From NCBI GenBank assembly GCA_964016885.1, contig OZ024743.1, positions 202,864,001-202,928,000 of the forward strand: a stretch of DNA of 64,000 nucleotides. The letters run 5' to 3'. Positions 723-57,440 of this stretch are shown piece by piece. The translations under genes and the position numbers were made by a program. The notes under the pieces were generated by a model. That model was not told the origin of the DNA. It worked only from the letters and a program-made list of their open reading frames with translations, and did not search any database. How positions within the stretch are numbered: position 1 is the first letter of the stretch; every line of letters starts with the position of its first letter. Origin of the DNA: Eledone cirrhosa. Lineage: Eukaryota.

Positions 723-779
<57 letters not shown>

Positions 780-782
<3 letters not shown>

Positions 783-974
783 CGAAGGAAATGTGGTAAG
801 GAACCAGGTGGACCATAACGCACCAAAGTACTCAATACTTAGGGTAGTAGAGTGGGTAATAGGAACGAGTAAGATCCCGATGGCTGAGCTCAAGCCGTTT
901 CGACGGCTAATTCAGTCCAGAATTGGCCGTCGAAACGGCTTGAGCTCAGCCATCGGGATCCTACTCGTTCCTAT
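780..974 (-). mobile_element. Fold-back mini-element of PLE family A (3' tail plus inverted half-HHR arms)
   Basis: 780-913 is the reverse complement of about 20500-20632. 859-974 is a near-perfect palindrome. Flanked by (TA)n. Confidence 0.85.
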
Positions 975-8822: not shown

Positions 8823-8875
<53 letters not shown>

Positions 8876-8907
8876 TACACGGGTGTGTATGATTGTGTAT
8901 ACAAGAT

Positions 8908-9295
8908 TATATTAATAAGAGGAATTCCAACTTTGTCTGATTTACTCGTTTTATTTACAATCCTTTAAAATTTATAATGGTATTATAATGAAATATTATG
9001 ATAGAATATTCAATGTTAAGTGTTGATTGAACAAGTACTTTCATGCTTTCGCAATCTTCAGGTTCATAATGTGTGGTGACAGTCAAGTTTGCAATTTTCA
9101 ACTGTGAAAATTGCAAACTTGACTGTCACCACACATTATGAACCTGAAGATTGCGAAAGCATGAAAGTACTTGTTCAATCAACACTTAACATTGAATATT
9201 CTATCATACTTTTTCATTACAATACCATTATAAATTTTAAAGGATTGTAAATAAAACGATTAAATCAGACAAAGTTGGAATTCCTCTTATTAATA

Positions 9296-9297
<2 letters not shown>
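8908..9297. mobile_element. About 390-bp fold-back element with an HHR in each arm
   Basis: Near-perfect inverted repeat centred on 9101-9104, ending in (TA)n. Confidence 0.9.
9139..9177 (+). ncRNA. Minimal hammerhead ribozyme (mirror copy at 9028-9066, minus strand)
   Basis: UGAAC-CUGAAGA-U-UGC(gaaa)GCA-U-GAAA-GUAC-UU^GUUCA. Confidence 0.8.
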
Positions 9298-9354
<57 letters not shown>

Positions 9355-12970: not shown

Positions 12971-13142
12971 ATTACTGGCGGCAATGAGTGGAGAGCGAGG
13001 AGATCAACACTTTTGTACTTGTTTATTTATTTGTATTTAACTAACAAGTTGTTTAAACCTATTGTAAAATAGACAACAGCCAACAACAAAAAGTATACAT
13101 TAAAAAAAAAGAAAACTACAACTACTATTTTTATTTTTATTT

Positions 13143-13300
13143 ATAATTGTTTTTACTTTTGGCACAAGGCCAACAATTATCACAGTACATTACTGGTACT
13201 TTATTTTATCGACCCTGTAAGGATGAAAGGCAAAGTGAACCTCGGCGGGATTTGAACTAAAGCCATAAAGGGGCGTAACTCTATGCTGCAAAGCATGTTT
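13143..13300 (-). mobile_element. tRNA-derived SINE (5'-truncated)
   Basis: Matches 51174-51364. Confidence 0.85.
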
Positions 13301-14545: not shown

Positions 14546-14633
<88 letters not shown>

Positions 14634-14785
14634 AAAATAATCGCTGCTTCATTTTAGTGTTCAAATTTATTATTATTACTATATATATATATGAGTGTAT
14701 GTGTGTGTCTGTGTGTGTATGTGCGCGGTGTGTGTCTGCGTGTGACCGTATAAGAACATATATATATGAATAAAGGTATATATGG

Positions 14786-15318: not shown

Positions 15319-15323
<5 letters not shown>

Positions 15324-16742
15324 AACCGGTAAGACCCCGACGGCTGAGCTCAAGCCGTTTCGACGGCTAATTCTGGACTAAATGAAAATTTATCCTGGTA
15401 TTTAAATAGCCGATCTTCTCAAGGGGTAATTCCATATATGGTCAAAGCGATTGTCAAAAGTCAGTAGTAATTCTGTGATTGCAAATTAGTAGGGGAGATG
15501 GTGGCTAAACCTGCCAGTAGGAGAAAGAGGGGATGGGGTGGAGTAGACCCAATCAAGCGTTGGTGGTGCCAGCTACAGCTGGGCATGAGGTCAAAGAAGA
15601 TACTGGGGAGGGGGAGGGGGAGGAGGTCGGAACGGTAGGTAGAACAATGAGGGGTAAAAATATATATGAAAGAAAAAATACTGAGAGTGAAGAAAAGCGA
15701 ATAAGTGTAAAGAAACGTGTAAAGCAAGTTCTACGACCTAAGTCTCTAGCTATTGTTAGGCTAGATAAATAAATAAAGAAAGAAAGAAAGAAGTAAAGAA
15801 AGAAAGAAAGAAATAACGAAATAAGTAAATAAGTAAATGAACTGGGTGGGACGGAATAGGCAAGGACCCTTTTAAGAGGTATAAGTACGTAAATCATACG
15901 GTGACGGGTCAACAAATGGGGCCAAAGTACTAAAGAGACTACTACGAAATAAATAATAAAGGTTTCTATCCCGGGCACAATGCCAGCAACCACCCAGTGC
16001 AGCAAAGTAAACTAGTACGAGATAATAATTCTGAGTCCCGAAAAAAATATATACTAATGCTAACTCTAAAAGATATTATACAAGCTACATGAAACTTCGT
16101 ACGAAGTAAAGGTAGAATACGGAAAAATAAATTCAGAATCCACCCCGCCCAAAAGAAAAGCGAAGAAAGAAATACGGAAACGAGAAAAAGGCATAAGTGC
16201 CACTAAGAAATATAGAATGCACGGAAAATAGTGGGAGCGGTCGGAAAAGGGGGCAAGTATCCGGGGTCAAAACCAACTGCTATAAAAAGCGGAGTCCGCC
16301 AAATCTATCATAGACTAGGGGAGAGGGTGGGGGTACTAAGGCTACAAGGGGCCAAAGGGCAGCCTCGGGTGGGCGAGAAAAGACGCCGACAAAGAAGAAG
16401 AGCTGGGGTAGAAGGACTAAGGAGGGATGGGGGGAAGGAAATAAAGGAAGCGATAAAAGAATAAAAAGAAGATCTTACGTCTCCCTTGGCAAGGAGGGGT
16501 AACCCATTGCAAAATCGGCAAGTGGGGTGTTATAGCCCTAGTCTACCCCCACCCCCCGAGTCATTATGGGGTTTGAGGGCGAGATAAGTCCTAGCAATCT
16601 ATGTTTACATACAGTAACCAGTTCATCTTTCTTGTTTAGGAGTTGGTCCGTCGAAAACAGCATTTGTAAAGTTTCCTCCGAGCATAAATTGCACGGACGG
16701 CGTCCTCCCGTGTAAGAATTGGCTCTGGACAGTAATCTCCAA
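15319..16742 (-). mobile_element. PLE family A copy: ORF C-terminus plus about 1.2-kb 3' UTR with HHR, lacking the tail
   Basis: Reverse complement of about 19153-20554 with modest divergence. Encodes [23 protein letters not shown]. Confidence 0.92.
15334..15427 (-). ncRNA. Variant hammerhead ribozyme (U3:A8 core)
   Basis: Same fold as 20446-20539. Stem III is fully Watson-Crick here (ACGGCU/AGCCGU). Confidence 0.75.
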
Positions 16743-16851: not shown

Positions 16852-16864
16852 GTATATATATAAA

Positions 16865-17066
16865 TATAGAGGATAAAGTATGACCCCGACAGCAGAGCTC
16901 ATGCTTTATGCATATATTTATAAGTGCTGAATTCATAAATAGCCGTCGAAACGGCTTAAGCTCTGCCGTCGTGGTCATACTTTCTCCTATTACCCATTCC
17001 ACTACCCTAAGTATTGAGTACTCTGGTGCGTTATTGTCCATCTGGTTCCTTACCACAACTCCTTCG

Positions 17067-17068
<2 letters not shown>
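16865..17068 (+). mobile_element. Family A-related mini-element (short inverted arm, HHR 3' half, tail)
   Basis: tagccgtcgaaacggcttaagctctgccgtc..tccttcgtt(at)n. Confidence 0.8.
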
Positions 17069-17130
<62 letters not shown>

Positions 17131-17165
17131 ATATATATATATATATATATATAGGAACCAGTAAG

Positions 17166-17259
17166 ACCCCGACAGCTGAGCTCAAGCCGTTTCGACGGCT
17201 AATTCTGGACTAAATGAAAATTTATCCTGGTATTTAAATAGCCGATCTTCTCAAGGGGT
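17166..17259 (-). ncRNA. Variant hammerhead ribozyme in the inverted pLTR arm
   Basis: Reverse complement of 20446-20539. Confidence 0.75.
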
Positions 17260-17908
17260 AATTCCATATATGGTCAAAGTGATTGTCAAAAATCAGTAGT
17301 AATTCTGTGGTTGCAAATTAGTAGGGGAGATGGTGGCTAAACCTGCCAGTAGGAGAAAGAGGGGAGGGGGTGGAGTAGACCCAATCAAGCGTTGGTAGTG
17401 CCAGCCACAGCTGGGCATGAGGTCAAAGAAGATACAGGGGAGGGGGAGGGGGAGGAAGTCGGAACGGTAGGTAGAACAATAGGGGGTAGAAATAGGAAAG
17501 AAAAAATACTGAGAGTGAAGAAAGGCAAATAAGTGTAAAGAAAAAAGTAAAGTAAATTAAATTCAACGACCTAGGTGTCAGGCTATTGTTAGGCGAGAAT
17601 AAAATAAAGAAAGAAAGAAAGAAGTAAATAAATAAATAAATAAATAAATAAGGAAATAAGTAAGAGAACTAGGTGGGACGAATAAGGCAAGGACCCTTTT
17701 AAGAGGTATAAGTACGTAAATGATACGGTGACGGGTCAACAAAAGGGGCCAAAATACTAAAGAGACTACCACGAAATAAACAATAAGGGTTTCCATCCCG
17801 GGCCAGCAACGACCCAGTGCAGCAAAGTGAACTTGTACGAGATAATAATTCTGAGTCCCGAGAAAAATATATACTAATGCTAACTCTAAAAGATCTAAAA
17901 CAAGCTAC

Positions 17909-19348
17909 ATGATAAATATGGAGGATAAACGAGAAACTAAATTCATACAGTTCGACATAGAGAGCTACTATGCTTCAATCACCTTACCGCTACTTACTGC
18001 CGCCTTGGACTTCGCCGAAACACTCGTGCCCATCACCGACCAGGAAAGAAAAATCATCCTCCACGCCAGGAAGACAGTCTTACTCTTTGACAACTCTAAA
18101 TGGATAAAAAGAGCTCCCGACTCACCCTTCGAGGTCAGCATGGGCGCCACGGATTCGGCGGAGGTCACTGATCTTATAGGATTATTCCTAATAGCCAAAC
18201 TCACTGATATGTTTCCTGCATTCGGTGGTGGATTGTACCGTGATGATGGGCTCCTTACCCTTAAAGGGTACAACCCCAGTAGTACAGATCGGGTCCGGAA
18301 ACAATTAATCAGATTCTTCCGCGACTGGGGATTTAAAATAACCCTACAAACGTCCCTGACCCGAGTAAACTTTCTGGACGTAACCCTCGACCTCGAAAAC
18401 GACCTGTACTACCCATACAGGAAACCTAATGACAATCTGCACTACATCCACCGCCGATCAAACCATCCTAGGAACATCACAAACAACCTGGTCAAAAACA
18501 TCTCCCTCCGCATATCCCTTTTGTCAGCTAATGAGCGGATATTCGATGAACATGCGCCTTATTACAATCAGGCCCTCAAGCGGAGTGGTTTCCGGGAGGA
18601 AATATCCTACTGTCCAGCTCCCATTAGCGGAACCAGCAGGAGACACCGCCGCTCACGCAATGTAACATGGTTCAATCCTCCCCACAACGCAGAGGTGACT
18701 ACTCCCATCGGGAAACTATTCTTTAGGCTCATTGAAAAACACTTCCCATTACAACACCGCTACCACAACATAATTAACAAAAATACCATCAAACTCTCTT
18801 ACAGCACTACACCAAACTTCGCACAAAACATCGTCTCCTCTAACAACAAAAAACTCAACCCCGATGGCAGAAATAACCTAATTAGCAGTGGAGAACCGAC
18901 CAGGAGGTGTAACTGCCCGGATAGATCTATTTGCCCACTCGACAATAGATGCAGAGACCGTAATGTGATCTACCAGTGCAACGTGAGGACGGATACCTCC
19001 AACAAAGCCTATATAGGACTTACCGCATGTGACTTCAAGACCCGGCTATACCAACATAGACATACCTTCCGAAACCCGGCCCGGCGTCACGCCACTACAC
19101 TTTCGGGACACATATGGGACCTCAAGGACAACAACATCACCTATGATCTCACTTGGAGATTACTGTCTAGAGCCAATTCTTACACGGGAGGACGCCGTCC
19201 GTGCAATTTATGCTCGGAGGAAACTTTACAAATGCTGTTTTCGACGGACCAACTCCTAAACAAGAAAGATGAACTGGTTACTGCATGTAAACATAGATTG
19301 CGTAGGACTTACCTCGCCCTCAAAACCCATAATGACCCGGGGGGGTAG
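17909..19348 (+). CDS. PLE RT (from motif A) plus Zn-linker plus GIY-YIG endonuclease, N-terminally truncated
   Basis: FDIESYY, VSMGATDSAEVTDLIG, YRDDGL, VNFLDVTL, YIHRRSNHP, WFNPP, CNC..CPLDNRC and NVIYQC..YIGLTACDFKTRLYQH. Confidence 0.95.
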   Translation: MINMEDKRETKFIQFDIESYYASITLPLLTAALDFAETLVPITDQERKIILHARKTVLLFDNSKWIKRAPDSPFEVSMGATDSAEVTDLIGLFLIAKLTDMFPAFGGGLYRDDGLLTLKGYNPSSTDRVRKQLIRFFRDWGFKITLQTSLTRVNFLDVTLDLENDLYYPYRKPNDNLHYIHRRSNHPRNITNNLVKNISLRISLLSANERIFDEHAPYYNQALKRSGFREEISYCPAPISGTSRRHRRSRNVTWFNPPHNAEVTTPIGKLFFRLIEKHFPLQHRYHNIINKNTIKLSYSTTPNFAQNIVSSNNKKLNPDGRNNLISSGEPTRRCNCPDRSICPLDNRCRDRNVIYQCNVRTDTSNKAYIGLTACDFKTRLYQHRHTFRNPARRHATTLSGHIWDLKDNNITYDLTWRLLSRANSYTGGRRPCNLCSEETLQMLFSTDQLLNKKDELVTACKHRLRRTYLALKTHNDPGG

Positions 19349-20445
19349 ACTAGGGCTATAACACCCCAGTTGCCGATTTTGCAATGGGTAACCCCTGCTT
19401 GCCAAGGAAGACGTAAGATCTTCTTTGTATTCTTTTATCGCTTCCTTTATTTCCTTCCCCCCTCTCTCCTTTGTCCTTCTACCCCAGCTCTTCTCCTTTG
19501 TCGGCGTCTTTTCTCGCCCACCCGAGGCTGCCCTTTGGCCCCATGTAGCCTTAGTACCCCCCCCCTAGTCTTTGATAGATTTGGCGGACTCCGCCCTTTA
19601 TAACAGTTGGCTTAGCCCCCGGATACTTTCCCCCTTTTTCCGACCGCTCCCACTATTCTCTGTGCCCTCTATATTTCTTAGTGGCACTTATGCCTTATTT
19701 TTTCGTTTCAGTATTTCTTGCTTCGCTTTTCTTCTGGGCGGGGTGGATTCTGAATTTATTTCTCCGTATTCTACCTTTATTTCGTACGAACTTTCATGTA
19801 GCTTGTTTTAGATCTTTTAGAGTTAGCATTAGTATATATTTTTCTCGGGACTCAGAATTATTATCTCGTACAAGTTCACTTTGCTGCACTGGGTCGTTGC
19901 TGGCCCGGGATGGAAACCTTTATTGTTTATTTCGTGGTAGTCTCTTTAGTATTTTGGCCCCTTTTGTTGACCCGTCACCGTATCATTTACGTACTTATAC
20001 CTCTTAAAAGGGTCCCTGCCTAATCCGTCCCACCTAGTTCTCTTACTTATTTCCTTATTTATTTATTTATTTATTTATTTACTTCTTTCTTTCTTTATTT
20101 ATTTTATTCTCGCCTAACAATAGCCTGACACCTAGGTCGTTGAATTTAATTTACTTTACTTTTTTCTTTACACTTATTTGCCTTTCTTCACTCTCAGTAT
20201 TTTTTCTTTCCTATTTCTACCCCCTATTGTTCTACCTACCGTTCCGACTTCCTCCCCCTCCCCCTCCCCTGTATCTTCTTTGACCTCATGCCCAGCTGTA
20301 GCTGGCACTACCAACGCTTGATTGGGTCTACTCCACCCCTCCCCTCTTTCTCCTACTGGCAGGTTTAGCCACCATCTCCCCTACTAATTTGCAACCACAG
20401 AATTACTACTGATTTTTGACAATCACTTTGACCATATATGGAATT

Positions 20446-20539
20446 ACCCCTTGAGAAGATCGGCTATTTAAATACCAGGATAAATTTTCATTTAGTCCAG
20501 AATTAGCCGTCGAAACGGCTTGAGCTCAGCTGTCGGGGT
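20446..20539 (+). ncRNA. Type I hammerhead ribozyme with U3:A8 covariant core and 37-nt loop II
   Basis: ACCCC-UUGAGAA-GAuCGGCUA(37 nt)UAGCCGUC-GAA-ACGGCU(ugagcuc)AGCUGU-C^GGGGU. Confidence 0.8.
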
Positions 20540-20630
20540 CTTACTGGTTCCTATTACCCACTCTACTACCTCAAGTATTGAGTACTTTGGTGCGTTATGG
20601 TCCACCTGGTTCCTTACCACATTTCCTTCG

Positions 20631-20702
<72 letters not shown>

Positions 20703-23791: not shown

Positions 23792-23950
23792 AGTTTCAGA
23801 AGATCCCGTTAAAGGAGAAAGCAGCGATTCTTTGCTGAAACTTAAATCTGTTATTTTAATAAATATTTGCTCTATACTTATATATATATATATATATTAT
23901 CCCTATCGATCCCTCTTCGGATTTTAGTCTTCACATTTATTATTATTACT
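23792..23950 (+). mobile_element. PLE family B 3' end with HHR-like motif (23792-23842) and tail
   Basis: AGUUU-CAGAAGA-UCC..GGA-GAA-AGCA..UGCU-G-AAACU. The tail is shared with 290-362 and 650-722. Confidence 0.65.
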
Positions 23951-24271
23951 ATATATATATATATATATTTAAAAGGTAAGCAGAAATAACAACGCAATCA
24001 TATCCAGGGAATGTAACGTGAAGTTAATGTAGGTTCACCCAGGTGAGCACTCGATGTTTAGGTTCACGTCTGTAGCGATGTGTGACGATGTCCGACGAGC
24101 TTTTGATTCTAGAGTCGTGCCAGATCGATACAGATCGAACCATGAGCTAATTAATAGCGAAATGCGCGTCACCAATCAATAAACGTAATGAAGGCTTAAC
24201 AAATCGCCCTTGTATTATATATATATATATACATAAAGAGATAGATATAGAGAGAGATATAGTGAGAGAGA

Positions 24272-24543: not shown

Positions 24544-24562
24544 CTATATATATATACATTTT

Positions 24563-24751
24563 ATTAATTGTTTCTACTTTTGGCACAAGGCCAGCAATTA
24601 CCTCAGTACATTACTAGTACTTTATTTTATCGACCCCGTAAGGATGAAAGGCAAATTTAAACTCGTCGAGATTTGAACTCAGACCATAAAGTGCCGTAAC
24701 TCTGTGCTACAAAGCATGGCGTCCGACCCTCTACCGATACTGCCAATCCAC
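24563..24751 (-). mobile_element. tRNA-derived SINE
   Basis: A box TGGCAGTATCGG, B box GAGTTCAAATC, and a conserved central gcctttcatccttacggggtcgataaaat. Confidence 0.9.
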
Positions 24752-25360
24752 AATAATGCTTTAGACTTGACGACTAATGCCATCAATTTGAACTTGACGG
24801 CAAAGTCGATCAAATCGACGCCTCTACGTGACAGGCGCTTTATTTTATAAAAACTGGATAGGTAACGTTGAAAGGTAACGTTGACTTGAATGGAATTTAA
24901 ATTGTTACGAAGAGTAACAAGTAATAGTTTCTAAATTTGGCCAGGTATTTTGGGGGGAAGGAAATGGCTACTTAAATTTATTCCAATCCAGGAGGAGGAA
25001 GGACAATTTTTAACTAGGCGGGATTTGAATTCAGAACGTAGGCGGCCGTCAATAGATGGCACGAGATATGATTTCCGATTAGCTAACAAATCTGGCATTT
25101 CATAGACCTTAGCCAAAGTAACAATAACAGCTCAAATATTTAATTATCTCCATTACTTAGTATTCATAGCTATAAAGACAGGTATGTATGTTTTATGAAG
25201 GCACTTATTTTGATGATAAAGAGAGGGATGATTATAGAGTTGTCAATACGTTGAACAACAAATAAACATAAATATTTTCAACTAAAATGTTTATGTATTA
25301 TGATGTTTAGAAAGCGATGAATTAGGCACAACATGACCTATATATATTTACATATATGAA

Positions 25361-34843: not shown

Positions 34844-35671
34844 ATTAGAGTGTATGTGCTTGCTTTTCTATGCGTGTGCATACATACATACATCACTTTA
34901 CATGCAATAGAGTGATGGTTCACTTTAAAAGTATTGCTCTATACACTTATTTTTTAAATTTAAACTAATTGTATCTGAAAGTTAATACGCACCAAAAATA
35001 GAAGAAGTGGGATCATAGAGAATGTGCTGAACCAATGGCATATCAGATGTCACCGTTGATTTAACTCTAAACTTATCGTTGTACGTCCCTTTCCCTTTAA
35101 ATGCAATGTCGAATGAATCTTATTCCCTGGTGTGAACTTAGATCATCAAATCAAAGGTATGCTTGATTCGTTACGTGAATCACGAATCTACATTTATATA
35201 TGCAAGTAAGAGCAATCCCACACATCTGTCTAATTATGTATGACAACGAAACATGGATAAACATTATGTTTTCAATAATAGAGTGAATCTTGTGTTAAGG
35301 CAATAAATACATAGAAAGAAAAAGTATTTCTAGAAAAGATATTGTTTGCAGGAAGCTTTGGGTGATACGTAATATATAACAGGGTGTTCGGAAAGCTAGT
35401 ACAATGCTGATAGAAATATAAAGATGGTACTGTGGTATTATGATGTCAAAACAAGAGAAAATAATGTTTTTATACAATACATTCCATGATATTAAATGTA
35501 ATGACAATATTTTCAAATGAGCGGTGAACTCAGATCGGAACTATATAGAACAGAGTGGCTGTTGTTACTCACACACAAAACACAGGAAAAGTTCGTGAGA
35601 ACCGAACGTCCCATTGTTTCTTAGTTCATCGTTTACCATTTGAGAAGAAGGGTTTTACCTTAAATGTCATA

Positions 35672-35855
35672 TAATTGTTTCTACTTTTGGCACAAGGCCA
35701 GCAATTACCCAGTGCATTACTGGTACTTTATTTTATCGACCCCGTAAGGATGAAAGGCAAAGTCAACCTCGGCGGGATTTGAACTCAGATCGTAAAGGGA
35801 CGTAACTATGCTGGAAAGCATGGCGTCCGACCCTCTACCGATACTGCCAATCCAC
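35672..35855 (-). mobile_element. tRNA-derived SINE
   Basis: Full-length match to 24563-24751 and 51174-51364. Confidence 0.9.
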
Positions 35856-35979
35856 ATGCATTGGGTAAATATATTTCATAATATTTAAGGTAGAACATGT
35901 TCAACGAGAGAAATTAAAACGTTTTCTAAAACGAGAATCATTCCAAACCAAAAGAATGTTGTAAAACATTAAATGTCGA

Positions 35980-46152: not shown

Positions 46153-46681
46153 ATTATATATTATATTTTTTGTATTCACATTAAGAATAGATTAAACTGC
46201 AGCATAATATATACAGACACACAAACACAGACATATATAAACACATACATAAAAACGTACACTTGTCAATATATTTCTAATGACCAGAATTTTTATTTCA
46301 TTGTTTTAACTTATATCAGGACTCTGTTTTCCTTTTAATGTTTTATTGTTTTCCGGGATTTATTTTAACCAACAACATTTTCAACATATGGATTACATTG
46401 AGTTCTTCATGTAGACTGGACCCCATAACTTACCGTGGATATCTCTGTGTGTGTGTATATATATGTTGAAAATGTTGTAGTTTAAAATAAATCCCAGAAA
46501 ACAATAAAACATTAAAAGGAAAACAGTCCTGATATAAGTTAAAACAATGAAAAAAAAATTCTGGTCATTAGAAATATATTGACAAGTGTATGTTTTTATG
46601 TATGTGTTTATATATGTCTGTGTTTGTGTGTCTGTATATATTATGCTGCAGTTTAATCTATTCTTAATGTGACTACAAAAA

Positions 46682-46695
<14 letters not shown>
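46153..46695. repeat. Fold-back inverted repeat, about 235-bp arms and 70-bp spacer
   Basis: 46153-46389 is the reverse complement of 46461-46695. Confidence 0.9.
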
Positions 46696-48196: not shown

Positions 48197-49098
48197 CACA
48201 CATACACATAAATATATATAAAAAAAGAAATAGATAAATAAATAAATAAATACACACAGTCAGACAATTATGCACACATATATATATATACACACATACA
48301 CATACACACATCTCTACAAATATATATACACACATATACACACGCACGCATACATATATACATACACACATACTTATATATAGAGACATACATATACATA
48401 TATATATATACATACATATACATATATATACACACATACATACATATATATACATATATATATATATATACAATCATAGACACTTATTTACATGCGCACA
48501 TATGTATTTTTATACTCACATATAAACACCCAAACATACATACCTACTTACATACACATACATTCATCCACGCTTACAAATATAAATAATTATGGGGGGG
48601 GGGGATTAAAATTATTAGTGGGAAAAAGTAAATATAGGTTTCATGGAACATAGAATATTAATCTGCATTTAGATCATAATATATGTTTACATAGTAGTTT
48701 CAGTATTAGGAAATGTAAGAAAGCAGGCAAAATTATGCATTTTAATATAAGTAGACTATTAATTAAAGGTTAACTGAAATAAAATTAGTTAATATATTGA
48801 TTTCTTAGGTTTATAATATTTGAAGCGGAATTTTGAAGTTAAACAGTAGTAGAATATTAATTATATCATAACTAAATTAAAATATTAACATTATGGTATC
48901 AATATTAGGAAATGAATTTAGTAATAGGGAAAACCAAATCAAGTATTTCATCGGTAGTAGAATATAAATTATAGGTTAACTAAATTAAAGAATTATATAT
49001 TAATTTCTATAGTATATGTTAATTAGGTTTATAATAATTAAAACAGATTTTGTATTTTATCTATAGTAGAATATAATTATAGGTTAACAAAAATTAAA

Positions 49099-49151
<53 letters not shown>

Positions 49152-50365
49152 TAATTGTAAAAAATATATTAATTAGGTATATATTTAAAAATTTATCTCA
49201 GTTTATGATTACATGATATTCTGCAATCCATCTGTATTGGAATTTTAATTTTAAGCTAATTAAATTAAAATTATAGGTTAACTAAATTAAAATTAATTTA
49301 TAAATAAGTTTCTAAATTGTACATTAATTAGGTTTATAATATTAAAAAATATTTCTCTGTTATTGATTACACGATATTTTGTTATATTTCATCTATAAAG
49401 GAATTTTAATAAAAGGTTAAATAAACTAAAATTAATCTATAAATTAATTTACAAAGTATATATTAATTATGTTAATAATATTTAAAAGTTTTTCACTATT
49501 TATGATTACACAATATTTTTTATCTCATCTGTATTAGAAATTTAATTAAATTAAATTTATAGGTTATCTACATTTAAATTAAATTATATATTAATTTCTA
49601 AATTTCTAAAATATATATTATTATTTAGGTTTATAATATTTAAATGTTTTTCTCAGTTTATGATTACACGATATAATTAATGATCCACCCCTTATCAAAA
49701 TAATAGAAATGAATGTAGATTATGTTCCCAAGAACTATTTGAAATAATGAAATCTAAGGATATCCTATTAAATAAGCGACAGGAATTAATTATATCGTGT
49801 AATCATAAACTGAGAAAAACATTTAAATATTATAAACCTAAATAATAATATATATTTTAGAAATTTAGAAATTAATATATAATTTAATTTAAATGTAAAT
49901 AACCTATAAATTTAATTTAATTAAATTTCTAATACAGATGAGATAAAAAATTTTGTGTAATCATAAATAGTGAAAAACTTTTAAATATTATTAACATAAT
50001 TAATATATACTTTGTAAATTAATTTATAGATTAATTTTAGTTTATTTAACCTTTTATTAAAATTCCTTTATAGATGAAATATAACAAAATATCGTGTAAT
50101 CAATAACAGAGAAATATTTTTAAATATTATAAACCTAATTAATGTACAATTTAGAAACTTATTTATAAATTAATTTTAATTTAGTTAACCTATAATTTTA
50201 ATTTAATTAGCTTAAAATTAAAATTCCAATACAGATGGATTACAGAATATCATGTAATCATAAACTCAGATAAATTTTTAAATATATACCCAATTAATAT
50301 ATTTTTTACAATTAAAAAAAAAAAAAATATATATATATATATATTATTTTTAATTTTTGTTAACT
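46715..50365. mobile_element. PLE family C inverted pair: minus arm 46715-49680, plus arm 49692-50365
   Basis: The plus arm begins YQNNRNECRLCSQE..KYYKPK*. About 49080-49680 is mirrored by 49787-50365. Confidence 0.85.
46775..46925 (-). ncRNA. Hammerhead ribozyme with a 114-nt stem-loop II
   Basis: UCAUUAUUU-CUGAAGA-cGGCAUAUguAUGUGUUGG..CUAACACAUAUAUGUCcua-GAAA-CGAUCG-UU^AAAUAAUGA. Confidence 0.75.
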
Positions 50366-51173
50366 ATAAAACAAGTGTATAGCTCTATATACAGGCGTTA
50401 GGATAAAAGAGTTGTGGACAATATAATACAGAAATAACAGACGGACAAGTAGATTGAAAGATATATTGAGAGATAAAGGCTTAATAGGTGATGATGCAGT
50501 AGGGGTGTAGATTGAGGGTGACCATGGCAATAATGGATGATTGATATATGTGAGGGAAAGAGAGTTGAAGGGGTGTGTCTATACAGAAGGAATACTTAAT
50601 CACTGTGGGAGTGTTTTTAGAGTGTCAGCTACTTTTGGGTCCGATTAGTAAGGAGTTCGTTTTTTGCAATCTCAGGCATAAACTTTGAAGTATTTCGATT
50701 ATTTGTTTGTTTATTATTGTTTTTGGTGGTAGAGTGTCCGTGTTCATAGCGTGATTTAGCAGGGCGGTTTCCTTTAATGATGATAAGAGGATCTTAGAGT
50801 GGTTCGGTGGCGCCAATTTTGAAAACGTTATAAGTTTGGGGAATTATAACAATTTCGCTGGTGGGAACTGGACTTAAAATGGATTGTCATGCTAGCACTA
50901 CGGATAGCGATTTTTAGCCACACAGGACCAATGAAAGATTTGTTAATATTAGGAATAAACCCTACTGTATAGCTGATTCGCGTTATTCTTCACTCCTTTA
51001 TACATATATATATTTGTTGGTAAAATCATATTTATAGAGTGATTATGTAAACTTTAATGAAGTGGTAAAGAGAGAGAGTGAGTGAGTGAGAGAGAGAAAT
51101 ATAGTCAGATAGAGAGAGAGAGATCAGTATATTTCCTGTGTTTAATTAGTAAGACCATTATTTACCTGAGTAC

Positions 51174-51364
51174 CTGAGGGCGGTAGATTGCCAGAATCGG
51201 TAGAGGGTCGGACGCCATGCTTTGAATCATACAGTTATGGCTCTTGCCATTCTGAGTTCAAATCCCGCCGAGGTTAACTTTGCCTTTCATCCTTACGGCG
51301 TCGATAAAATAAATACCAGTAATGCACTGGTTAATTTGCTGGCTTTGTGCCAAAAGTAGAAACA
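51174..51364 (+). mobile_element. tRNA-derived SINE with 17-bp target-site duplication
   Basis: A and B boxes present. ATTATTTACCTGAGTAC at 51157-51173 and 51365-51381. Confidence 0.92.
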
Positions 51365-51536
51365 ATTATTTACCTGAGTACTCGATACTTGGGATATTGA
51401 AGTGTAAATATAGACAGTTTTAACAGCAAATTCTGTCTCTCTCTAACACACACACACACACACATACAAACATGTATATATCTATATATATAGAGAGAGA
51501 GAGAGATAGAGAGAGAGAGAAGATTCATATCTACAC

Positions 51537-51582
<46 letters not shown>

Positions 51583-51634
51583 ATATATATATATATATAT
51601 TGGAAAATGTGTGTAATCCTTGGTACAGTTAGGT

Positions 51635-51878
51635 ATATTAAGACAGGAGGGGGAAGAAAAAATGGCTTCATTTGTGCTTTCAACAAATTTATTTTCTTCA
51701 CAAAATCCAAAAATAATTTAAAAAATTTGTTTAGAAATTGAGTCGACTCAATTTATAAAATTTTATTTAATAAAATTTTTTTTAATCCGGAAAAAAATTA
51801 TTTTTGGATTTTGTGAAGAAAATAAATTTGTTGAAAGCACAAGTGAAGCCATTTTTTTCTTCCTCCCTGTCTTAATAT
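51635..51878. mobile_element. MITE with about 85-bp TIRs
   Basis: tattaagacaggag..aaaataattt is mirrored at the right end. TA flanks. Confidence 0.75.
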
Positions 51879-53992
51879 ATATATATATATATCGAGAGAG
51901 AGAGAAAGAGAGAGCAAAAGAGAAATATATATATATATATATATTACGTATGGGAATGAAACATTCTTTCCGTTACAAAGTATGCTTCCAGAATCTCGAG
52001 AAACCAAAGAGAATTTGTTTCCCCATGTAAATCGCAGTTCAATATTATCGCACTATATCAGTGTTTTTGTAGATGTCTCTTGATCCGGAGAAGACAAAGA
52101 ATAACAAAATGGCGCTGAGTGAAATTTGAACTGTATAAACTGAAGTTGTATTAGGAAACGGTAAGGGAAACACGAGCATCTTTTATATTTCCCTATATCA
52201 AGATTTCAATTAATCATACAGAGATCTTGTCAAATATAGCTCTTATATAAATGTATCAGTGTATGTTATTCTTTATTTTCTATTTAAATATTTGTAGAAG
52301 CAACATAATATAATATATAAAATAAAATAAAATATTACGGTGTCGACAAATTTTACGTTTAATATACATTTTTTTTTCTATTTTATTATTTGAACATTTA
52401 TTTTACTATTTCTCCTCTTTCCTTTTAATCGTTACACAACTCGGTTAATATGTCATAGCAAAACTCCGTCTGATGCTGGTCTCACCTGACGCAAGTGATA
52501 TCATTGGTGTCAATTTCTTTTTGACATAATGTCGAAGAATATTTACTATGTAACTCGATCTGCTACAAATATCAGCAATTTTTTCAAATCCTGAGGACGG
52601 ATTGTATGTTAATATAGTTATACAAAATAAAACTAGGTAATTATGCCTTTAATAAATTTGCTCGATTAGGCTGACATTTGCAAGTAAACAACAACGTACA
52701 TTCATTCGACATATTCGAGTCGGCAATCAAGGGAAATATTTGACAGATGTAGATGCTTGCATATGGTTTAAGATTATCGATTGTGAGTTCAAAGCCAATA
52801 TATTTATTTCCATCAATCTTTCACATATAATTCTTTATAAGTAAATCAGTGTAAGATGACCAGGTCCATTTCAGTCCCTCCGGCAATAAAATAATGAATC
52901 TGAAACACAACGCGCTCTTATGTAGTTCAACTTTGGAATATCTATCTCAAGACGACAATCGACCCGGTTATCTGGACTGAATACTTGCAACGGTGTAAAT
53001 TCTACTAAAGGAACAAAAACAAGAAGTTGTGATTTTTGTTTGAGCTAACATTCTACGTTGGATCTTTTGACATGTTTGTAAGGAATAGAAGGGGAATCAC
53101 TGAAAAGATAATATAAGTTAGTCTGTCTTCCTCATGTGCCTGATATATATATATATACATTGCACTCTTCATCTTTAATGTTATGATGGCAGAAATAAAC
53201 GACACAACATTTTTATCGGGATTTTGAATATAGCTATATAGTAAAGTAACAATAAAATTATCTTGAAATATATTCTTCCTACATTGTCCATATATCCCTA
53301 TCTCACTCGCTCTTCAAATTTCTCGCAAGCATAAATTGTCCCCGGTAATGGAAATAGTTCTTAGCTGACGGTAGGATACGAAACACTTCATCGTTATTTT
53401 GTAGGAACGTGTTTGCTATTCTAGCTACAGTACTGTTTACATACAACATAGAACTATAATTAACATCTTTTAGTGCAAATCATTGTGATCCTTGAAGCCT
53501 GATGAAATTGTAGATGCCCTGTTATGATATTTGAACCTGGCGGGGCTTATATTTCTCCAGGGATGAATGCAGCCTATTTCGTCAAGAGAAATAGAAACAG
53601 ATATAGAGGAAGAATCACCCATATTATTAAACAGGTACATTATGTACCCACGTCAAAGGAATGAAAGACAAAGTTGAGGTAGTCGAGATTCCAACTCAAA
53701 TTACATAGAGCTGGAACAAATATTGCAAATATTTCCAATCAGCAGTCTAAAGTCTCTCCTATTTCACCGTATAATAGCACAAAATGTTAATTTCACAGAT
53801 GATTGCTCCTTGATTTAATTACTCGAATAGACTCGATTCCTCCTTTTAATATGATTAAAACGTTAACTCAGTAATTACCCTAAAATATATGAGAATGTTC
53901 CAAACATGAAATCAATATTCTTCATTAAGATTATACAGATTTGCTTCTCCCAAAAAATATATATATTGCCCTTATAGGTATGTGTATATCTA

Positions 53993-56191: not shown

Positions 56192-56196
<5 letters not shown>

Positions 56197-56328
56197 AAAA
56201 TGTTTAATCCCACGGCGGAGCTCAAGCCTTTTCGACGGCTATTTCCTATTACCCACTCTACTACCCTAAGTATTGAGTACTCTGGTGCGTTATGGTCCAT
56301 CTAGTTCCTTACTACACTTCCTTCGTTA
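56192..56328 (+). mobile_element. Family A mini-element (inverted arm plus tail)
   Basis: ataggaaa..gagctcaagccttttcgacggcta followed by ttcctattacccac..cttcgtt(at)n. Confidence 0.8.
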
Positions 56329-56356
56329 TATATATATATGTATATATATATAACGA

Positions 56357-56736
56357 AGCTCAAAAGAGCCACAGAATGTTATAATAAACCTTCAAAAGTG
56401 TGGGACTAGAGTTGTTACTCAAACATATTGTAATCATTATCTATCGTACATTCTGTGGCATCCTTTATGAAAATATCACAATAAATACATCTATATTTAA
56501 TAATATTACGTAATTATTTATAGCTGTTATTATATTAAACATAGATGTATTTATTGTGATATTTTTATAAAGGATGCCACAGAATGTACGATGGATAATG
56601 ATTACAATATTTTTGAGTAACAACTTTTGAAGGTTTATTATAACACACTTTTGAAGGTTTATTATACACACTTTTGAAGGTTTATTATACACACTTTTGA
56701 AGGTTTATTATAACATTCTGTGGCTCTTTTGAGCTT
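56357..56736. repeat. Fold-back element with a tandem 22-23-bp expansion in the right arm
   Basis: Arms mirror around about 56515. acttttgaaggtttattata occurs four times. Confidence 0.85.
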
Positions 56737-57273
56737 GCGCATTTTTCATGTCTAGTTTAATATTTTTTTAAGGCAACGCTTGTAATAACTCTAGTTAAAC
56801 ATGATATATATTAATAATAAATTATCGTTGTAATGTAATTAGATTATATAATTGTTATTATAAATGATCTTATAAATATTAGTGTAAGATGTATAAAAAT
56901 ATTTTCAGACTTTTAATATAAACAACAACAAAAAACAATCAATATTAATAGAAAACATAACATAAATAAACAATATAAAAATAAAATATTTACATACAAT
57001 TGCAATTATCATTCTATATACATTTTCTTTATTCCCTGAGCAAATTAATGAGTTTTGTTCTTATTGCACATAATTTGATGACTTTTTGGAGTGTATTAAA
57101 AGATAACAACAATTTGTGATTAAATTGTTATCTTAAGCAACTCTCTTTTTAATAGTTGTTGGCTGAGCAAATATTTTAAAAAATACACAAACTACATTTC
57201 CCTGTATTGTTGCAACATTAGATAAAATAATTGAGCAATGTCGTGAGATTTTGCTCTTATTGCACATTAATAG

Positions 57274-57440
57274 TGTTTCTATTTTAGGCACAAAGCCATT
57301 ACCTCAGTCCATTACTGGTACTTTATTTTATCGAACTGGTAAGGATGAAAGGCAAAGTTAACCTCGGCAGGATTTGAACTTAGAACGCAAAGGGCCATAA
57401 CAATGCTGCAAAGCATGATGTCTGACGCTCTACCAATACT
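57274..57440 (-). mobile_element. tRNA-derived SINE
   Basis: Matches the other copies. Confidence 0.85.

Follow-up and report, generated by a model that had tools for sequence, protein, structure and literature searches.

A sharp, testable sequence footprint suggestive of twin priming in a Hydra-type Penelope-like retrotransposon of Eledone cirrhosa

The stretch of Eledone cirrhosa DNA analysed here (the window; 64,000 nucleotides of contig OZ024743.1, assembly GCA_964016885.1) carries several insertions of a Penelope-like retrotransposon (PLE), which by its protein motifs is a member of the Hydra clade. The ends of these insertions and of their relatives across the genome point to near-obligate twin priming, in which the two broken ends of a TA repeat would prime one first-strand cDNA each, both at fixed positions of their own on the RNA, and the two cDNAs would then be joined head to head. 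We give this reading a probability of roughly two in three. Arms of the element end either at a short-end site, within the motif CCTAT (tailless arms), or at a tailed-end site further downstream (tailed arms), and short two-armed insertions are called minis. Eight ends lie in the window and resolve into four two-armed insertions (779-974, ~16864-17070, 17151-20634 and 56192-56329) and one lone tailless arm (15319-16742). An earlier sequence-only reading of the window had listed both 15319 and 17068 as ends. They do not bound one element: the first belongs to the lone arm, for which no tailed partner was found, and the second closes the older mini at ~16864-17070.

One 24-mer of the element has 52,348 exact matches in the 3.0-Gb genome (26,170 + 26,178), against none for the reversed control. 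Anchored arms, 403 in total, were obtained from fetched loci comprising the first 24-mer matches, minis found by pattern, matches to the open reading frame (ORF) and ten exceptions, so that the shares of long and short copies among them are not genome-wide. Their outer ends are not randomly scattered: the short site is the stop for 192 arms and the tailed site for 171, 12 run into the ORF and 28 stop elsewhere. On manual reading, about 9 of these 28 belong to diverged subfamilies in which the alignment breaks although the arm does end at CCTAT. The fixed ends (363 of the 403) continue into a TA hexamer with at most one mismatch in 360 cases, a clear enrichment over the surroundings of the window, where (TA)4+ covers 7.6% of 264 kb. 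A minor subfamily counted by pattern (395 tailed, 464 tailless) has the identical stop. The ends proposed earlier within the window hold up well. The inverted-arm ends at 974, 15319, 17151 and 56192 each coincide with the last T of CCTAT, and the sense ends given as 780, 17068, 20632 and 56328 are all present, although the last T of CGTT is at 781, 17068, 20632 and 56327, two of them thus being off by one base. The 78-nt tail offset is correct as it was counted and corresponds to 80 nt from TAT to TAT (unit positions 49-51 and 129-131), while the short end, placed about 20 nt beyond the predicted hammerhead ribozyme cut, is indeed 20 nt downstream of the GUC in a hammerhead-shaped fold.

The two kinds of end are almost always paired. 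The genome-wide pattern count took in minis whose arms are both intact and separated by 0-30 nt, like pairs being halved since they match on both strands; an arm scored as tailed in this count is one that reads past CCTAT, and some may be mis-scored. Mixed minis, with one short and one tailed end, make up 12,530 of the 13,064, the others being short/short (111) or tailed/tailed (423). About half of the pairs would be alike if ends were independent, and these counts therefore support pairing. In the fetched loci 121 of 121 pairs are mixed (a set that excludes loci L031-L070, that is 10 chosen exceptions and 30 short ORF-match loci), as are all 31 elements longer than 330 bp. Both arms moreover come from one source lineage: a 22-nt tag compared in 77 minis shows 1.06 differences within and 3.9 between minis, and long arms of a single element mostly show 0-5 differences per kb, where the median between loci is 12 per kb. 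Chance joining of neighbours is thereby excluded. The idea that two different RNAs contribute to each insertion as a general rule was rejected, arm differences being mostly private.

These results make it very improbable that the minis are a self-copying family akin to miniature inverted-repeat transposable elements (MITEs) or arise by recombination between neighbouring single-armed insertions. They do look like inverted repeats set in TA, and they predominate: in loci from the first 24-mer matches, 106 of 124 anchored arms are short. However, MITEs and other non-autonomous DNA transposons have inverted repeats at both termini and a uniform interior, whereas the mini ends are asymmetric, offset by 80 nt, and 87 distinct junctions occur in 107 minis; nor were minis sharing one rare junction at many unrelated sites seen in the sample. 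Recombination predicts 1:2:1 pairing and mixed subfamilies, in contrast to the 111:12,530:423 proportions and the matched tags.

In read-through copies the short site reads TTCC-TAT-TAC and the tailed site TCGT-TAT-CTAG, and at both the three bases TAT are common with the (TA)n flank. The TA microhomology proposed in the sequence-only reading thus fits the target at both sites but is insufficient alone to pick them, as other TATs at unit positions 73, 93 and 179 are hardly or never used as ends. A stem of 4 bp, a 2-nt bulge and 4 bp stands beyond each used site, 5 nt past the short one and 3 nt past the tailed one (the latter in read-through copies, not in the window). A different origin of the two ends, EN-mediated resolution, is named as the likely source of the tail by Craig et al. 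2021 (PMC8557442). Both arms would begin at the tailed site, or one cDNA would be duplicated, and the endonuclease would later cut at CCTAT and join the product to the target. A nuclease cutting AT sequences would choose TAT as well, and the excess of tailed/tailed over short/short minis agrees with this model. It is nevertheless unlikely: two reverse transcription (RT) starts bounding the tail were mapped in vitro in a related system (PMC11167929), stems of the same shape follow both sites in two families and, as a weaker point, some tailed arms terminate at the short site, as they would if a primer there stood in the way.

As a rule, the inverted arm had been described as short and the sense arm as tailed. 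This is a tendency only, the tailed arm being the longer in 22 of the 31 long elements and the tailless arm in 9, with an excess of up to 16 kb; the tailless arm of one array spans 4.5 units. Among 86 minis, the tailless arm is the longer in 28 and the tailed arm in 45. The polarity is better restated as follows: each insertion has one end of each kind, and either arm may be the longer. Arm lengths also weigh heavily against snap-back of one cDNA, or the self-priming of antisense RNA proposed by Arkhipova et al. 2013 (PMC3846280), in which the inverted arm is a copy of the first. Private changes common to both arms, as in the mini at 779-974, and the perfect palindromes formed at some junctions are what such copying would leave. 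However, a copy cannot outreach the tailed cDNA, so that the long elements and minis with a longer tailless arm cannot be accounted for, and an extra G often present on both arms (see below) argues for a capped sense template read twice. Snap-back is largely refuted and we consider it highly improbable. Separately, tail-only inserts were seen at L163, L184, L158 and L088; these are single tailed arms whose start is at or close to the short-end site and which are flanked on both sides by TA-rich sequence or a simple repeat.

The inner ends, overlooked in the sequence-only reading, are fixed too, probably at the start of a capped RNA. They lie at the initiator-like motif TTAGTCC. None of 305 short arms extends beyond its A by more than 5 nt; their mode is at the G and A of AGTCC, forming a pile-up just upstream of hammerhead stem II. 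The base preceding AGTCC is G in none of 88 long arms, which have T or C there, but in 26 of 102 short arms. In 478 minis both arms reach the A of TTAGTCC and have a non-T next base; G is found on both arms in 242 of them, against 53 expected if A, C and G were equal. A hand count of the first 50 listed minis (100 arms) gave G 70 times, C 29 times and A once. An extra G is the accepted sign of cap copying in L1 (PMC11702581), and Penelope transcription begins at an initiator within the pseudo-long terminal repeat (pLTR; PMC2377424). The extra G, absent from the template, is thus likely the mark of a copied RNA cap, with the RNA start at the A of TTAGTCC. In contigs of the DNA-like run X2, possibly from the assembly's own sample, the A-to-A joint is the deepest among the opposite-strand joints listed, loose TA ends occur at both sites, and depth on the mini segment is far above that on the 5' ORF. 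From these joints and depths, the minis are no artefact of the assembly. Runs X6 and X7 contain no more than small shares.

The likely RNA start falls 41 nt before the predicted hammerhead cut, within loop II. A copy of such a capped 5' end would lack half of the ribozyme, and the minis keep only its 3' half. In long arms the core UUGA-N-AA is present in 42 of 47, with N (position 7) varying as expected, and GUC in 43 of 47. No Rfam hammerhead appears in the best 150 of 288 matches, those listed being microsatellite-driven miRNA matches only. A U3-A8 hammerhead core has been published for Cercyon PLEs (Cervera and de la Pena 2014, PMC4209133), and ribozyme cleavage was found to be unnecessary in vitro (PMC11167929).

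In another reading, twin priming is right but the mini arms stop by stalling of the reverse transcriptase in loop II rather than at a capped start, the stop being within a predicted stem extension of that loop. This has little probability. Long arms cross the same structure 111 times against 3 stops, and reverse transcriptases usually add A as the extra base, whereas G was counted 70 times and A once in 100 arms. The motif also fits an initiator.

Those 111 passages of the start point are by arms that have copied a whole unit, and only 3 such arms stop there with a non-T base. This contrast with the cap stops of minis suggests that minis and long copies use different templates. The 3 stops (L211, L212 and L213) are short tandems in which the cDNA reaches the start and then jumps 200-300 nt downstream. 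Among the 31 long elements, a long arm paired with a start-stopped arm was not found except at L162 and L168. With the three loci above, these form a set of short tandems in which an arm at the likely RNA start resumes 200-950 nt downstream, as template jumps after the cap would. Longer arrays also occur: L111-L113, L114-L116 and L125-L126 are arrays of 3-4.5 intact units with variants alternating or in blocks (ABAB, AABAB, AAB), and in one array the inner units have common changes missing from both end units. A rolling-circle origin of the arrays was dropped as support, as later DNA duplication or assembly effects fit the patterns equally well. One element, at L116:1171-4742, has between its arms some 65 repeats of a 55-bp segment of the ORF (unit 1745-1802).

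Twin priming at two fixed sites could proceed as follows. The GIY-YIG-type domain would nick each strand of the (TA)n target. The protein would dock at the two bulged stems, probably with two subunits, and each DNA 3' end would pair with the TAT just upstream. On the 5' end of a capped transcript, the cDNAs would reach the end of the template after 61 and 141 nt, add a C copied from the cap and be end-joined into a mini of about 200 bp, each cDNA then serving as template for the second strand of the other. Long arms would come from templates without an end at the start: a downstream repeat of a read-through or multi-unit transcript, a circle made by the ribozyme, or jumps after the cap, among which no choice is made. 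The two fixed sites and head-on arms of the sequence-only reading are supported by the genome-wide counts, whereas priming itself is inferred from sequence.

Several observations weigh against this scheme. Poseidon initiates without homology to the cut DNA and without a strand difference in start site (PMC11167929), and the common TAT is compatible with pairing or with mere copying. The short-site stem is nearly invariant across the family, so that there is no covariation, and the hammerhead region, which folds as a type-I three-way junction, is no more stable than shuffles (z -0.35). Like-ended minis, 423 and 111, do exist. No full-length arm was found to end at the cap, though a simple linear capped template predicts such arms, and RNA run X1 gave a single contig, with no sign of expression or start. 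The C in 29 of 100 extra bases has to be explained by copying from the partner or by the template of one subfamily, and part of the G class may likewise be partner-templated. Target duplication is readable in the flanks of 1 of 121 insertions, in a tandem context, and duplications would otherwise be hidden in (TA)n. Of the 15 long junctions, 7 overlap by 1-2 nt, 1 is blunt and 7 contain filler, which is no clear excess of microhomology, and tailed arms cluster weakly at the short site (9 of 43 short arms end within 11 nt) and at the predicted ribozyme cut (5 of 43 end within 5 nt).

The natural unit is 3531 bp and includes an intact ORF of 717 aa (full-length protein P0001, from locus L112). 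A protein search of the genome yields many intact copies and tandem arrays. Pfam and PDB sequence searches gave no match, but 2049 homologs were found among 7996 scored. The structure model of P0001 has a pLDDT of 93, and its top Foldseek match, in a search with the whole protein, is the telomerase RT TERT (3du5). A GIY-YIG-type domain C-terminal to the RT is assigned by motif (VIY..YIG at 591). DKT rather than DKG is found at 117 (112 of 120 homologs keep it), and RWR at 37 replaces RWK (RW[KR] in 114 of 120, RWK in 84 of 120). The linker carries CNCPDRSIC at 572 (CxCx5C), followed by CNLC at 670 (CxxC) and CKH at 698 (CxH). GxK[FY] is absent from the first 120 aa, CCHH is absent, and no CxxC lies within GIY..YIG. 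The features of the window are collected in Table 1. In the long element at 17151-20634 the tailless and tailed arms are joined by a 2-nt filler. A 9-nt direct repeat, CTGGTTCCT, occurs at 20544-20552, just before the short site, and at 20606-20614, 62 nt downstream in the tail.

Table 1. Parts of the PLE insertions found in the window (UTR, untranslated region)
Feature	Position	Strand	Description
Tailed arm of mini	779..913	-	Runs from 4 nt upstream of the 3' strand of hammerhead stem II; tailed end in (TA)n, with TAT at 781-779
Tailless arm of mini	914..974	+	Starts at A of the initiator-like motif (likely RNA start); CCTAT end in (TA)n
1.4-kb tailless arm	15319..16742	-	ORF 3' end and 3' UTR; tailed partner not found
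Decayed older mini, other subfamily	16864..17070	+	Tailless remnant ~16864-16904 (-), tailed arm 16934-17070 (+)
Tailless arm of long element	17151..17912	-	762 nt of 3' UTR
Tailed arm of long element	17915..20634	+	5'-truncated ORF, 3' UTR, hammerhead, tail
497-aa open frame	17855..19348	+	C-terminal two thirds of the RT / GIY-YIG-type ORF; YRDD, CxCx5C, CxxC, CxH
Type-I hammerhead-shaped fold, predicted	20440..20551	+	U3-A8 core UUGAGAA at 20451-20457; predicted cut after GUC at 20534
Initiator-like TTAGTCC in hammerhead loop II	20491..20497	+	A at 20494, genome-wide stop of mini arms; probable capped transcription start
Short-end site, TAT	20552..20554	+	18-20 nt past the predicted ribozyme cut
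Bulged stem, 4 bp + 2-nt bulge + 4 bp	20560..20583	+	5 nt past the short-end site
Tailed-end site, TAT	20632..20634	+	TATCTAG in read-through copies, TATATA in insertions
138-bp mini	56192..56329	.	Tailless arm 56192-56245 (-); tailed arm (+) with inner end at the short-end site

Twin priming of L1 was reportedly described by Ostertag and Kazazian in 2001. The process proposed for Eledone works like it but is distinct. In both, the second DNA end primes internally at a site of short homology (in Eledone the TAT present at both sites), two cDNAs join head-on and an extra G marks the cap (PMC11702581). In L1, however, twin priming is occasional, the second site is variable, the first primer sits at the poly(A) end and there is hardly any overlap between the arms, whereas in Eledone it appears near-obligate, both sites are fixed and internal, and the arms copy the same stretch and overlap by up to kilobases.

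Among PLEs, the element resembles the C-terminal EN+ members of the Hydra clade (PMC8557442) in its single ORF with RT and GIY-YIG-type domains, DKT, CxCx5C, CxxC, CxH and no CCHH, as well as in insertion into (TA)n, a predicted hammerhead-shaped fold in the terminal repeat, an inverted arm and a one-sided tail. It differs from that description by RWR in place of RWK, a unit of 3.53 kb instead of 'generally <3 kb', a tail of 80 nt instead of 30-40, the U3-A8 hammerhead core and at least 13,064 minis. The proposed process has in common with Poseidon_Ac (Frangieh et al. 2024, PMC11167929) a tail delimited by two RT starts, cleavage and extension of both target strands, an AT-rich target, a stem-loop near the start and a predicted dimer; the TAT match at both sites and the presence of one of each per insertion set the Eledone element apart. 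The Penelopes of Adineta vaga (PMC3846280) likewise have head-to-head inverted arms, an optional tail on one and an initiator-like pLTR motif. The account given for them is self-priming on an antisense template, whereas the Eledone arm lengths and extra G favour a sense capped template. The Cercyon hammerheads (PMC4209133) share the U3-A8 core and a palindromic helix III, and circular RNA templates were proposed there for copies longer than one unit; unlike those minimal ribozymes, the Eledone fold has a long stem II holding the likely RNA start. Non-LTR retrozymes carry a complete type-I hammerhead in each tandem unit (10.64898/2026.07.22.740005), whereas the Eledone minis are head to head and lack the 5' half of the ribozyme. 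The inverted arm, a one-sided tail of 30-40 bp and the (TA)n bias were thus already published (PMC8557442, PMC3846280), as were two RT starts with cutting and extension of both strands (PMC11167929). The accessible text of the literature searched, which left supplements and most subscription papers outside, showed neither a near-strict pairing of one end of each kind nor a TAT match at the two sites nor a cap footprint, so that their absence from print is not established.

A second PLE family with the same two-end design in (TA)n occurs in the window at 182-379, 535-743, 14630-14692 and 23795-23971. Its ORF pieces have about 50% amino-acid identity to P0001 (loci L102, L106 and L184). TAT is again found at the tailed site, while the short site uses two TA-compatible registers (12 and 13 of 49 arms), and a GCTC..GAGC stem follows both ends, the tailed one being taken from a single read-through copy. 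Its arms, too, seem to end close to a TTAGT motif that immediately precedes a hammerhead-like core. The start motif is reached by few short arms (4 of 15), and an extra G was found on none by strict match and at two loci by eye. The window also contains long palindromes, some with their centre on or near TA runs (8849-9352, 46155-46693, 49077-50369, 51634-51879 and 56380-56666); at L013 and L160 elements are inserted at a palindrome centre. A dispersed repeat of about 190 bp is present in at least 5 copies (13140-13297, 24560-24752, 35670-35856, 51183-51369 and 57266-57440).

PLEs are the sister group of telomerase, and the origin of their inverted arms, one-sided tail and pLTRs is called open in the accessible literature (PMC2377424, PMC3846280, PMC8557442, PMC11167929). 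Tens of thousands of young copies are available in this family, with intact ORFs and with outer and inner ends that are exact to the base. The start sites, the stem signal, the TAT pairing and the capped sense template are each directly testable in vitro with one protein and a 250-nt RNA. A broader proposal is made tentatively and is judged less likely than not: integration of PLEs may by design need no primer for the second strand. A two-subunit enzyme combining RT and nuclease would use two RNA stems 80 nt apart, pass one broken DNA end to each and make two first strands that become joined head to head. Run-off at the cap would then yield dead minis, while post-cap jumps or ribozyme circles would regenerate the pLTR and its promoter. 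If this were true, pLTRs, inverted arms and the one-sided tail would all be explained by a single reaction.
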